Virus record (IMG/VR): IMGVR_UViG_3300043788_000023
Span: 105,609 to 169,608 of that record
Length of the DNA stretch: 64,000 nucleotides
Reading direction: 5' to 3' (one strand)
Source: a virus
Below the pieces are notes generated by a model that worked only from the letters and a program-made list of their open reading frames with translations, was not told the DNA's origin and searched no databases. The first letter of the stretch is position 1; every line of letters starts with the position of its first letter. The translations under genes were made by a program, and so were the position numbers. Shown one piece after another: positions 23,935 to 36,044 of the stretch.

Positions 23935-24019
23935 TGGCTGGGAAGGCAGGATTCTAACCTGCAAGCCTTGCGGCACCAGTTTCAAGGACTGGCGTGTTTA
24001 ACAATTCCACCACTTCCCA
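23935..24019 (-). tRNA. Atypical tRNA, anticodon TTG (Gln-type acceptor, long variable arm, C33)
   Basis: TGGGAAG/CTTCCCA-GCCA acceptor; CCAGT-CCTTGAA-ACTGG; variable arm GCCGCAAGGC; T loop TTAGAAT. Confidence 0.75.
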
Positions 24020-24025
24020 AGAGAT

Positions 24026-24099
24026 TGGCTGGGAGACTAGGATTCGGACCTAGACTTCTTGGTTCAGAGCCAAGCGTGTTGCCGTTACACTATCTCCCA
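24026..24099 (-). tRNA. tRNA-Gln(CTG)
   Basis: TGGGAGA...CTTGG-CTCTGAA-CCAAG...TCTCCCAGCCA. Confidence 0.92.
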
Positions 24100-24108
24100 A
24101 AAGAAAGT

Positions 24109-24182
24109 TGGCTGGGAGACCTGGATTCGAACCAGGATAGCAGGGTCCAAAGTCCTGCGTCCTACCGTTGGACGATCTCCCA
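24109..24182 (-). tRNA. tRNA-Gln(TTG)
   Basis: TGGGAGA...CAGGA-CTTTGGA-CCCTG...GGTTCGAATCC...CCCAGCCA. Confidence 0.92.
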
Positions 24183-24191
24183 AAAGAAAAT

Positions 24192-24267
24192 TGGAGCTAC
24201 CAGAGGGCATCGAACCCCCAACCTCCGCATTACAGGTGCGGCGCTCTGCCAATTGAGCTATGGTAGC
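24192..24267 (-). tRNA. tRNA-Thr(TGT), C33 variant
   Basis: GCTACCA...CCGCA-CCTGTAA-TGCGG...TGGTAGCTCCA. Confidence 0.9.
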
Positions 24268-24276
24268 GAAAATTTT

Positions 24277-24513
24277 TTACTTGCAGCAGCGCCCGTTCAT
24301 CGGATGCTGGGCTTCAGGCACCGGGTAGACCGTTGCGCCCTTGTGCTCCTCGCAGGGCCAAACGTGTTCGCTTCCGTCTCGTGCCAACCACTTGATGCCG
24401 TACTGCTCCAGCGGATTGACGACCGCCTCTACCGCCAGTTCCACGTCCCCGATCACGACCTTCTTGCCCATGAGCAGGTTCATCGCCTGCTCGCCGTTCA
24501 ACTTGATTTCCAT
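24277..24513 (-). CDS. Small hypothetical protein embedded in the tRNA operon
   Basis: MEIKLNGEQ... 78 aa with a GGGAG SD; fills the gap between two Thr tRNAs. Confidence 0.6.
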   Translation of the reverse strand: MEIKLNGEQAMNLLMGKKVVIGDVELAVEAVVNPLEQYGIKWLARDGSEHVWPCEEHKGATVYPVPEAQHPMNGRCCK

Positions 24514-24528
24514 TTCATCTCCCGAACT

Positions 24529-24604
24529 TGGAGCTACCGGGTGGATTCGAACCACCGACCTCCCCCTTACCAAGGGGGCATTCTACCAACTGAACTACGG
24601 CAGC
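24529..24604 (-). tRNA. tRNA-Thr(GGT)
   Basis: GCTGCCG...CCCCC-TTGGTAA-GGGGG...CGGTAGCTCCA. Confidence 0.93.
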
Positions 24605-24615
24605 AAACTTAAACT

Positions 24616-24691
24616 TGGAGCTACCGGAGGGCCTCGAACCCCCGACCTCCGCATTACGGGTGCGGCGCTCTACCAACTGAGCTACGGTAGC
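24616..24691 (-). tRNA. tRNA-Thr(CGT), C33 variant
   Basis: GCTACCG...CCGCA-CCCGTAA-TGCGG...CGGTAGCTCCA. Confidence 0.9.
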
Positions 24692-24702
24692 ACTACAAAA
24701 AT

Positions 24703-24777
24703 TGGTACCCATGGAGGGATTCGAACCCCCATAACACGCCTATCGAGCGTGCGTCCTAGCCGTTGGACGACACGGGT
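24703..24777 (-). tRNA. Atypical tRNA with GAT (Ile) anticodon, C33/G38 and a Glu/Gln-like D arm
   Basis: ACCCGTG/CATGGGT-ACCA; TCGTCCAACGGCTAGGAC; CACGC-TCGATAG-GCGTG. Confidence 0.75.
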
Positions 24778-24789
24778 AAAACAAAATCG

Positions 24790-24941
24790 TGGTGGAGCGT
24801 GCGGGATTCGAACCCGCTTCGGTACCAAACGATCTCAAGCCCATCCAGCTTCGGATTTTTGCCCGTCGCCTTCAACTGCTCGCTTGCGATCCGGGGAGTC
24901 GAACCCCGCGTGAGTCGTCGCTCTAGCCTCCAAGCCGCCCC
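24790..24941 (-). ncRNA. 152-nt tRNA-like RNA with an Ala-type G3-U70 acceptor and two T-loop arms
   Basis: 5' GGGGCG pairs with CGCTCC-ACCA; internal GCGGGGTTCGACTCCCCG and terminal GCGGGTTCGAATCCCGC. Confidence 0.65.
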
Positions 24942-24950
24942 ACAGAAATT

Positions 24951-25026
24951 TGGTAGGCGCGACTGGGATCGAACCAGTGACCTCAGTCTTATCAGGACTG
25001 CGCTCTGCCAACTGAGCTACGCGCCT
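24951..25026 (-). tRNA. tRNA-Ile(GAT)
   Basis: AGGCGCG...CAGTC-CTGATAA-GACTG...CGCGCCTACCA; canonical cloverleaf. Confidence 0.95.
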
Positions 25027-25039
25027 TCAAAACGTGCCT

Positions 25040-25077
25040 AAAAACAAAAAAGCCGACCACTTGTTGCTTGGTCGGCT
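25040..25077 (-). terminator. Attenuator terminator upstream of the tRNA operon
   Basis: AGCCGACCA-AGCAACAAG-TGGTCGGCT followed by TTTTTGTTTTT, just before the first tRNA. Confidence 0.85.
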
Positions 25078-25105
25078 GCTAACGTCCTGAATTTGCTGGG
25101 CTTAC

Positions 25106-25195
25106 TTAGTCTTTGAAGCCCTCAGACACGTCAACGGACCGACCGCATGTAATTCGTTGCGTCGTCGTAGTTCGCGTTGTAGGTGTCTGGTTCAT
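25106..25195 (-). CDS. Thr/Gln/Ile-rich attenuator leader peptide (MNQTPTTRTTTTQRITCGRSVDVSEGFKD)
   Basis: 29 codons, 8 Thr among the first 16; overlaps the 5' strand of an antiterminator hairpin. Confidence 0.8.
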   Translation of the reverse strand: MNQTPTTRTTTTQRITCGRSVDVSEGFKD

Positions 25196-25211
25196 GATCT
25201 TTTCTTTGTGT

Positions 25212-25246
25212 TGGCTGGGAGTCTCCGGTTTTACCAAAGACTCCCA
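25212..25246 (-). ncRNA. CCA-ended minihelix with a tRNA-Gln-like acceptor
   Basis: TGGGAGTCTTTGGT-AAA-ACCGGAGACTCCCA-GCCA. Confidence 0.65.
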
Positions 25247-25248
25247 AC

Positions 25249-25282
25249 TGGAGCCGAAACTCAGCTTTCGCTAACCTTCGGC
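25249..25282 (-). ncRNA. CCA-ended minihelix with a tRNA-Thr-like acceptor
   Basis: GCCGAAG-G-TTAGC-GAAA-GCTGA-G-TTTCGGC-TCCA. Confidence 0.65.
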
Positions 25283-25284
25283 AT

Positions 25285-25318
25285 TGGTGGAGAACCTCAG
25301 ATTTCGCTGCGATTCTCC
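25285..25318 (-). ncRNA. CCA-ended minihelix (A73, identity unclear)
   Basis: GGAGAATC-G-CAG-CGAAAT-CTG-A-GGTTCTCC-ACCA. Confidence 0.6.
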
Positions 25319-25327
25319 GTCTTGATT

Positions 25328-25356
25328 ATATTACTGGAAGTCCAGAAATATGTCAA
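25328..25356 (-). promoter_or_regulatory. sigma70 promoter of the minihelix-leader-tRNA transcript
   Basis: TTGACA-17 nt-TAATAT, with an overlapping TATAAT 3 nt further on. Confidence 0.75.
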
Positions 25357-25375
25357 GGTTATTTTCGCAGCGCCT

Positions 25376-25579
25376 TTAGACGGCTGTGACGCGTTCGGCT
25401 TGGAGACCCTTGGGTCCCTTGACCACTTCAAACTCAACTGCTGCGCCTTCGTCAAGGCTCTTGTAGCCCTCGCTCTGGATCGCCGAGAAATGTACGAATA
25501 CATCCTCGCCAGTCTGACGGGTGATAAAGCCATAGCCCTTTGCTGCGTTAAACCACTTCACGGTACCTTGTTCTGCCAT
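25376..25579 (-). CDS. cspA: Cold-shock protein
   Basis: [29 protein letters not shown]. Confidence 0.97.
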
Positions 25580-25688: not shown

Positions 25689-26590
25689 TCAAGCCTTGAT
25701 TAGCGGTAGTTCCTCGGGCATGATCCCGAAGGTGTCCCACCAGAACTCGGGCTGTTTGTCCCCGTTGTTCCGAAAATAGCGTCGGCCTTCACGCAGGGAC
25801 TTCTCCATGCGACCACGTTCCCCATCCATCCAGCCCATAAACGAACATTCCACGCCCTGCGGGTTGAGACGCATGAATCGCCGGATCAGGCGACGGCAGA
25901 CGTAGTTCCTGCCCCTGTTGCCCGGCACGATGTCCTGCTCGCGGAACACGCACAGGGTGCGGAAATGGTCGCGGGACACCGGGTCTAGGTCCTGCCGGAA
26001 GAGGCTCGTCTCGTCCACGCGGCTTTTGCCTTCCACGATCTGAAGCATGCGCTCGTAGCCGAAGCCCACGTCCACGGAGTGCCCCATCGGGTTCACGAGA
26101 TTGCCTACTTCAAGCCCCTCCGGCGTGAACAGTTCCGAGCAGTAGCCGCCCACGGTGCCGTCCGACCAGACGCAATCCGGGTCGTGGCACACGGGGAAGA
26201 CTCCGTTCCAGTGCCGCTCAAAGCCGGACTCCGGGTGGATGTTTACGTGGGAGATCGGGATGCCGAGGTCGCGGACGATGCCCGTCCACATGTCGCAGTG
26301 CCGCTGGTAGTCGTCCGTGCCGAAGCCGAAGCTACCGACCATCTGGAAGAAGGTCAGGTGCGTGCCGTCGCCGACCTCGTCGATGTCATTGGTGCGGACG
26401 CAGTGCTGGATGTTGCCGTGGCTGGTGCCGTCCGGTGTCTGGAACCTTGGCTTGAGTGGCTGCATCCCCGCGCTGATGAAAAGCGTGGTGGGGTCGTTCT
26501 CGGGGATTATGTTGGTGCTTGGTTCAAAGGGGAGACCGTTCTCGCTGAAGTGGCGTCGAAGGGTCTCGTTTAGGCGTCCCGCTGTGACAT
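25689..26590 (-). CDS. alaS: Truncated alanyl-tRNA synthetase (catalytic domain only); N-terminus out of frame with the SD-equipped ATG
   Basis: [69 protein letters not shown]. No editing or C-Ala domains. Confidence 0.8.
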
Positions 26591-35050: not shown

Positions 35051-35206
35051 GTCGGCGCGACGAACGGGAAATCGAACCCGAACTCCATACGGTGAGGAAC
35101 CAACCGCCGCTCGCTTCGGCTGACTCATCCGGCTAGATGACGCCTCCACGATTATCGCTATCCGGGGAATTCGAACCCCGCTCTCAGCCACGAGAGGTCG
35201 CCCGAC
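35051..35206 (-). ncRNA. ~156-nt double-T-loop structured RNA
   Basis: Closing stem GTCGG-GCGAC/GTCGC-G-CCGAC; T-arm hairpins GGGGTTCGAATTCCCC and CGGGTTCGATTTCCCG; has its own promoter. Confidence 0.6.
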
Positions 35207-35225
35207 GATAACTCCAACAGTGCAT

Positions 35226-35754: not shown

Positions 35755-36044
35755 AATTTTGTGGTGTTGAGGATCAGAGACACCGTCTCTGGGCACGCAG
35801 GTTTTTAAGCTGCGGCTGCCATTGCCATTGCCTTTGGAGCAGTGACGTTTAGTTGTTTCCATCCTGATTTTCGAGGGTATGGTACCTCGGGTCGCTAGCT
35901 CCGTCCTCGCACGTCTTCCGTCGAAACCGATTACCCCCGCAGTGGTGGAGGTAGAGGGAATTGAACCCTCGTCCGAAAAGACTGTCTGGTGCCTTTTACC
36001 CCCACACTTACCCTTCGGCAGTCTACAGGGGCTTACGACCATCT
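35755..36044 (-). ncRNA. ssrA: Circularly permuted (two-piece) tmRNA
   Basis: The acceptor piece ends GGACGAGGGTTCAATTCCCTCTACCTCCACCA (35943). After a 4-nt spacer comes GGGGGTAATCGGTTTCGAC (35938), giving G3-U70. The tag frame ends ...VTAPKAMAMAAAA-TAA (35805). Confidence 0.9.

Follow-up and report, generated by a model that had tools for sequence, protein, structure and literature searches.

The window analysed here is a stretch of 64,000 nucleotides that forms the final 64 kb of a 169,608-bp IMG/VR virus record with a CheckV completeness of ~54%. All features of the locus described below lie on the minus strand. In the direction of transcription, a gene for the catalytic core of an alanyl-tRNA synthetase (mini-AlaRS, 258 aa, 26465..25689; Pfam tRNA-synt_2c, 60 bits) is followed by the cold-shock protein gene csp (25579..25376) and by a near-consensus sigma-70-type promoter (TTGACA-17-TAATAT, 25356..25328) with 10 of 12 consensus matches. 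The promoter precedes three consecutive hairpins, H1 (25318..25285), H2 (25282..25249) and H3 (25246..25212). Downstream of them are a leader ORF of 29 codons (25195..25106), in which Thr, Gln and Ile codons are abundant and which is a separate finding included here as context, and an intrinsic terminator (GCCGACC...GGUCGGC plus a U tract, about 25076..25041) between the leader and the first tRNA gene. The terminator was seen in the fold of the 287-nt leader and is conserved in the alignment of relatives. The tRNA array (25026..23935), described using ARAGORN, Rfam and acceptor comparison, contains a tRNA-Ile, an Ala-identity tRNA-like RNA, an Ile-like tRNA, three tRNA-Thr with a small ORF between them, and three tRNA-Gln, with an encoded CCA on every gene. 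The csp gene has no terminator of its own and its stop codon is just 20 nt from the hairpins, while the mini-AlaRS gene is located 370 nt upstream.

The mini-AlaRS protein comprises the catalytic core alone and has 320 metagenome homologues. Most of the phage contigs fetched through these homologues show the gene order of the window (L043-L047), and one homologue with ~51% identity is found on a bacterial-looking contig (L051).

Each of the three units consists of a hairpin of 12-14 bp, a single base and CCA, 34-35 nt in total, and the units are separated by spacers of 2 nt (AU and GU). H1 (GGAGAAU...GUUCUCC-ACCA) is 34 nt long and has the discriminator A and a C at position -1, H2 (GCCGAAG...UUUCGGC-UCCA, 34 nt) has the discriminator U, a GAAA loop and a U at -1, and H3 (UGGGAGU...ACUCCCA-GCCA, 35 nt) has the discriminator G and a U at -1. 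These coordinates and folds agree with the original prediction, made by a model from the sequence letters, which had described three consecutive 34-35-nt hairpins with a discriminator and CCA and 2-nt spacers between them, including a GGAG/CTCC-ACCA unit that corresponds to H1. The calculated folding energies were -15.1 kcal/mol for H1 (z -3.7), -19.4 kcal/mol for H2 (z -5.0) and -23.0 kcal/mol for H3 (z -6.7). The 107-nt block folded into three separate hairpins (z -8.4), and the same fold was obtained within the whole 287-nt leader.

When both strands of the 169,608-bp record were scanned for hairpins followed by NCCA, 94 loose candidates were obtained, among which H2 and H3 were the two most stable and H1-H3 the only adjacent set. 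The covariance model R1 scored H1 and H2 at 41.4 and 42.4 bits, respectively. The unit covariance model recovered all copies in the relatives and, in the 169.6-kb record, H1-H3 only; against 36 unrelated loci it produced no match.

The three hairpins possess the helix, the discriminator base N73 and the CCA end of a tRNA (ACCA, UCCA and GCCA), as found in the CCA-encoding tRNA genes of this phage, and they lack the D, anticodon and T arms of the cloverleaf. As anticipated by the original prediction, every unit is a lone hairpin with no D or anticodon arm, and tRNA scanners miss it: ARAGORN and Rfam called no tRNA at 25212-25318. The units have the dimensions of an acceptor-TpsiC minihelix, with a helix of ~12 bp (7 + 5) and a length of ~35 nt including NCCA; 12 paired positions are present in all nine aligned units, and the length is 34-35 nt in all loci. 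The 7-nt T-loop (T54-psi55-C56) is absent, the loops being CGAAAU, GAAA, GAGA or (G)UAAAA(C). The sequence features of RNase P hairpin substrates (helix length, single-stranded 3' N-CCA and the -1 base) were found in 16 of 16 units.

Other classes of structured RNA fit these hairpins poorly. They are followed by NCCA and then by the next hairpin or an A-rich stretch, which is not the arrangement of an intrinsic terminator, and a terminator scanner listed nothing at the three positions. A search for a T-box or another catalogued tRNA-sensing leader in 25036-25322 returned no Rfam match with E <= 1 except for the upstream cspA element. The alanine determinant G3:U70 is absent, with position 3-28 being G-C, C-G or A-U in all aligned units. 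Readings of the hairpins as a terminator, an attachment-site remnant or a tRNA pseudogene were rejected on anatomy and covariation. T-box-like pairing of the NCCA ends with a leader UGGN was also rejected, because L001, a related locus, does not conserve the UGGU found in the terminator arm of the window.

Loci of relatives were fetched via the neighbouring synthetase gene and the leader sequence and not via the hairpins, so that conservation of the hairpins could be judged fairly. Their shared synteny includes the synthetase, often csp, the promoter, the leader ORF, the terminator, Ile, Thr and Gln tRNAs, and a GH16 gene, and the same promoter is found at the same position in all relatives. 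Three units are located between the promoter and the leader ORF in the window and in L001 (identical to L040), L039, L041, L042, L044 and L045, two in L043 and one in L046, with none at the leader of L047 (identical to L054) and L055. The promoter, leader ORF and terminator are present regardless of this copy number (0-3). The units are absent in two relatives and are thus accessory to the leader ORF and terminator; judged from this distribution, they are insertable modules that are dispensable for either element. Their placement upstream of the terminator, as originally proposed, is borne out, since they are found between the conserved promoter and the terminator. In L047, a 14-bp hairpin with ACCA is present in the other tRNA array of this phage, 1 nt past the CCA of a tRNA. 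All arrays belong to a single clade of uncultured phages from soil, peat and freshwater, and no more than a handful of them are independent.

BLAST searches of the region against deposited phage genomes found tRNA and csp similarity only and no homologous array. A 15-mer taken from the 3' half of H3 had exact matches at 36 loci in IMG/VR, which were dismissed as chance matches in apparently coding DNA with no fold and no model match, and four loci matched by a degenerate H3-loop pattern, which lack tRNAs, were likewise attributed to chance. L047 also contains two aberrant tRNA-like genes. One of them (2374-2446) has a 5-nt anticodon loop and the acceptor GGGCGGU-A, which is near the hairpin type GGGCGGC-A, and the other (2850-2923) was called with a 2-nt anticodon and is directly followed by the hairpin-ACCA unit.

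Conservation was analysed in a listed set of 16 units from seven loci. In all 16, the hairpin is 30 or 31 nt long, it is followed by a discriminator and CCA, and the base at -1 is U or C, with spacers of 1-3 nt. The sequence is variable among units, whereas the pairing is conserved. Pairing of the 12-bp helix was scored in nine distinct units of 34 nt and amounted to 95.4% of cells, compared to 31-52% with slid partners; ten of the 12 helix pairs show changes on both sides, and the covariation score was reached by none of 500 shuffles. An alignment of five three-unit arrays revealed compensatory changes at 18 of 39 pairs. The clearest case is L041, where H2 has changed at ten of its 34 positions and the changes are confined to the stem. 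Four pairs, among them bp 4 and 5, were exchanged on both sides in a compensatory manner, and two further single changes maintain or re-establish the pairing. The promoter stretch, H1, H3 and the leader of L041 are 97-100% identical to the window, which points to a fast local turnover of H2. The H1 orthologue of L001 is heavily changed, yet it is paired at all 12 positions, and the H3 orthologues in L001, L044 and L045 contain compensatory changes as well. This comparative sequence evidence confirms the three hairpins as real, conserved elements under selection for structure, and their layout resembles that of a tRNA array, as the original prediction had noted. Loss of pairing or of the CCA in homologous loci, which the original prediction had named as part of the outcome that would speak against it, was not what we found.

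These data bear directly on the possibility that the units are tRNA genes in decay or ordinary 5'-UTR hairpins with a fortuitous CCA, lacking any function of their own. The variable copy number (0-3), the loops that are not T-loops, and the lack of an RNA-family match could be seen in this light. However, decay or coincidence would have to account for a CCA in every one of the 16 units, where chance would place it at the right offset in 1 of 64 per unit, as well as for the fixed length of 30-31 nt and the extensive compensatory changes, and we consider this explanation strongly disfavoured and very improbable. As a minor feature of alignment A3, the U8.G23 wobble (columns 8 and 23) is kept in seven of nine units with an invariant G at column 23, and a G.U pair occurs at helix position 7 in four of nine.

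The acceptor ends of the hairpins were compared with those of the tRNAs encoded by the same phages. H3 (UGGGAGU...G73) matches the tRNA-Gln of the window (UGGGAGA/UCUCCCA-G; genes 24182..24109 and 24099..24026, minus strand) at six of seven base pairs and at G73, with the Gln-like features U1-A72, G2-C71, G3-C70 and G73. In its orthologues, bp 2-4 (GGG) and G73 are retained throughout, and U1-A72 is present in three of four, with A1-U72 in L045. H2 shares G1-C72, C2-G71 and U73 with the three tRNA-Thr of the window, and bp 1-3 and N73 are kept in its orthologues (GCC...U). In L001, H2 (GCCGGGG) matches the tRNA-Thr(CGT) of that phage (GCCGGGU) at six of seven base pairs plus U73. Thus, both the copy of the Gln acceptor and the Thr-type GC start with U73 that had been noticed initially are recovered in this comparison. 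Base pairs 4-7 vary.

H1 (GGAGAAU-A) is a good match to no tRNA of the locus. L043 and L046 have G1/A73 units only (GGGCGGC-A), which resemble the tRNA-Ile acceptors of these loci (AGGCGUG-A and GGGCGUG-A), and H3 of L001 keeps UGGGGG although the tRNA-Gln acceptors of this phage read UGCC.... Since G1-C72 with A73 is the commonest tRNA end, this part of the identity match is weak evidence. Acceptor mimicry is thus real for two of the three units of the window, and it is suggestive overall and not strict.

The leader ORF downstream of the hairpins (MxQT..TTRTTTTQRIT..) is conserved in frame in seven of eight relatives, with Thr, Gln and Ile accounting for 11-13 of the first 17 codons. The Thr-rich frame of L043 is shifted by +1 relative to its ATG. 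The leader ATG of L055 is only 8 nt past the -10 box, and its mRNA would be nearly leaderless. A CAGACAC/GUGUCUG helix is invariant in this comparison, which covered the window, L001, L044-L047 and L055 and showed no conserved Shine-Dalgarno sequence. A degenerate pattern of the leader codons had no match in 185,579 prokaryote genomes.

Leader codons and downstream tRNAs (Ile, Thr and Gln) match the Thr-like end of H2 and the Gln-like end of H3, and the mini-AlaRS gene is close upstream, which would suit a function of the hairpins as regulatory ligands. In such a scheme, IleRS, ThrRS, GlnRS or the phage mini-AlaRS would bind or charge the minihelices, adjusting the charging sensed by the leader peptide. 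GlnRS and IleRS depend strongly on the anticodon, however, and this argues against such ligands, as does the lack of G3:U70, and hence of alanine identity, in every unit. A point in favour of the ligands is that charging of acceptor microhelices by a viral mini-AlaRS has been reported (PMC10036535). The leader peptide and terminator are the same in relatives with 0-2 units, indicating that the attenuator does not need them. We therefore regard regulatory ligands as quite improbable and a role of the hairpins in tuning the attenuator as unlikely; the corresponding part of the original prediction, in which ligands of aminoacyl-tRNA synthetases tune the attenuator, is disfavoured by the hairpin-less relatives with their intact leader ORF and terminator.

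Our preferred reading, which we advance tentatively and place somewhat below an even chance, is that the units represent independent, non-decoding acceptor-arm minihelix genes, released as CCA-ended RNAs and likely occupying proteins that read acceptor ends. Each unit consists of 12 stacked base pairs with a GNRA-like loop cap, the discriminator and CCA. Transcription would start at the strong operon promoter, and since the units precede the terminator, each initiation at this near-consensus sequence would yield them, whether or not reading continues into the tRNA genes. RNase P would then cut the 5' side of each unit, 3' exonucleases would trim the 1-3-nt spacers back to the CCA as in polycistronic tRNA transcripts, and stable CCA-ended RNAs of 34-35 nt would be released. 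Acceptor/T-stem hairpins with a 3' RCCA are known to be cleaved by bacterial RNase P, with the 12-bp stack acting as a ruler and the RCCA pairing with the P15 loop (PMC11143913). GAAA-capped hairpins are also RNase P substrates, best with U at -1, although such loops lower the efficiency and accuracy of cleavage in vitro for some -1/+73 combinations (PMC10465520). In polycistronic transcripts, RNase P also cuts closely spaced tRNAs apart, and the short trailers that remain are left to exonucleases (PMC2190699). The GNRA-like loops in place of T-loops would speak against minihelix genes, as would the lack of a tRNA partner for H1 and the inconstant identities across relatives (only G1/A73 in L043 and L046). 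The same may be said of the origin of the few independent arrays from one clade and of the two relatives without units.

Cleavage by RNase P is also central to the main rival explanation, which we rate as rather unlikely. Here, the units are processing or stability signals only, that is, tRNA-like punctuation cut by RNase P with the hairpins as by-products. RNase P would split csp read-through from the leader mRNA, and the base-paired 5' end would shield the leader from 5'-end-dependent decay. The shape of the units is that of RNase P hairpin substrates, they occupy the extreme 5' end of the transcription unit at 20 nt from the csp stop, and an RNA-library contig (soil metatranscriptome X2, 25070-25475) spans csp, the promoter and the hairpins, all of which is in line with this explanation, as is the processing of phage C4 and M3 RNAs and of operon mRNAs by RNase P. 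However, one unit would suffice for this purpose, whereas up to three with the discriminators A, U and G are kept. In addition, a pure RNase P signal would be poorly served by U1-A72 and U73, which are typical of tRNA-Gln and tRNA-Thr, and the pairs conserved together with the discriminator (bp 1-3 and N73 in H2 orthologues, bp 2-4 and G73 in H3 orthologues) argue in the same direction. The relatives without units retain the promoter and leader, and the unit of L047 sits in a tRNA array, where there is no mRNA in need of separation.

Contigs from four metatranscriptomes (four studies of soil or sediment) cover the hairpins and leader at a depth of 2-6 and end at 25070-25087, near the terminator. 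As evidence of expression they are no more than a hint, since contigs are blind to RNA ends, DNA carry-over is possible and the terminator is divergent among relatives. The record yielded neither a CCA-adding enzyme nor RtcB, but its completeness of ~54% means that such an absence says little.

With regard to the function of the proposed minihelix genes, only the acceptor stem, N73 and CCA are kept, in two units with a Thr or Gln signature, and the most likely role is thus to occupy proteins that read the acceptor stem together with the CCA. Candidate targets would be toxins of host defence that cut or modify the 3' ends of tRNAs, with the hairpins acting as decoys that spare the real tRNAs, and we consider such a role, which the original prediction had suggested, a plausible hypothesis. 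Several toxins recognise precisely this part of a tRNA, the acceptor stem with its CCA. H2 has G1-C72, C2-G71, G4-C69 and A5-U68, which are all four determinants cited in this context, and bp 4 and 5 are swapped in L041; these observations would fit a decoy without proving one. A more elaborate and, in our estimate, unlikely version of this idea combines the hairpins with the leader-peptide sensor into a two-layer answer of the phage to host toxins of this kind. Constitutive acceptor-stem decoys, each tuned to a tRNA resupplied by the operon (Thr, Gln and perhaps Ile), would act first, replacement tRNAs would follow on demand, and the turnover of bp 4-5 would be the trace of an arms race with the stem-reading surface of the toxin.

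Synthetic acceptor-TpsiC minihelices of 35 nt have been used since 1989 as minimal substrates for synthetases, the CCA-adding enzyme and RNase P; their use with the toxSAS FaRel2 is more recent. The phage units resemble them in length (34-35 nt), in the ~12 stacked base pairs with discriminator and CCA, in the lack of D and anticodon arms, and in the copying of acceptor pairs from specific tRNAs. In contrast to these constructs, the phage units are natural, genome-encoded, conserved and tandem, and their loops are GNRA-like (GAAA, GAGA, CGAAAU and UAAAA) instead of the 7-nt T-loop. An acceptor plus T-stem-length helix is also found in RNase P model hairpins (pATSer and its GAAA-loop version), in the C4 precursor of phages P1 and P7, and in M3 RNA, and at the level of sequence features the units share with RNase P hairpin substrates a 3' N-CCA suited to pairing with the P15 loop as well as a pyrimidine at -1. 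However, C4 and M3 occur as single RNAs, serve other functions and do not form arrays of acceptor mimics beside tRNA genes.

The species 1 and 2 RNAs of phage T4 are stable RNAs of ~120-140 nt and unknown function that belong to the phage tRNA operon and undergo maturation by the enzymes of tRNA processing. The hairpins are likewise small structured RNAs encoded in a phage tRNA operon, but they are simple acceptor-arm hairpins of a different size, and no sequence relation was seen using Rfam. The phage T5 tRNA-Tyr and tRNA-Lys are reported to evade retron and PARIS effectors (PMC11555353). Like these tRNAs, the hairpins are encoded by a phage within a tRNA cluster and would serve to protect against attacks on the tRNA of the host; the T5 tRNAs are complete tRNAs that decode and replace the damaged species, whereas the hairpins cannot decode and could only mimic or compete.

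Full-text literature searches found synthetic minihelices, RNase P hairpins, C4 and M3, and decoding phage tRNAs deployed against defences, and no natural phage minihelix genes. The tandem arrangement of three units with different identities, their placement before a leader-peptide terminator and the copy number polymorphism of 0-3 appear to be new. Minihelices have been laboratory constructs for more than 30 years, and a natural, conserved, tandem set in a phage would mean that viral genomes hold genes for RNAs made up of nothing but the acceptor end. As decoys, the hairpins would be the first RNA-only counter to defences directed at tRNA 3' ends (toxSAS, MenT-type and GNAT toxins, acceptor-stem nucleases) and could be used as probes of toxin specificity, and as processing signals only they would represent tRNA-like punctuation in a bacterial virus. 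In either case, these units are missed by tRNA and RNA-family annotation.

Several other elements were noted on the minus strand around the locus. The Ala-identity tRNA-like RNA of the array (24790-24941), located between the two Ile genes, has the acceptor GGGGCG/CGCUCC with G3:U70, A73-CCA and two T-arm-like motifs; it shows a weak Rfam tmRNA match (23.8 bits), and ARAGORN is silent there. The small ORF between the tRNA-Thr genes (24277-24507) has 76 codons and a Shine-Dalgarno sequence, with no Pfam match. Farther away, a 102-nt element at 32788-32889 matches the Rfam tRNA family (62 bits) and is not listed by ARAGORN; it is probably a tRNA with an insertion or intron, and it is located between two tRNAs with CTA anticodons (amber suppressor-type) and a tRNA-Glu-like gene. 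A weak match to mascRNA, a tRNA-like small RNA, was found at 35156-35213, and 35805-36003 holds a permuted tmRNA (70.6 bits), accompanied by a promoter-like sequence and a terminator of its own.
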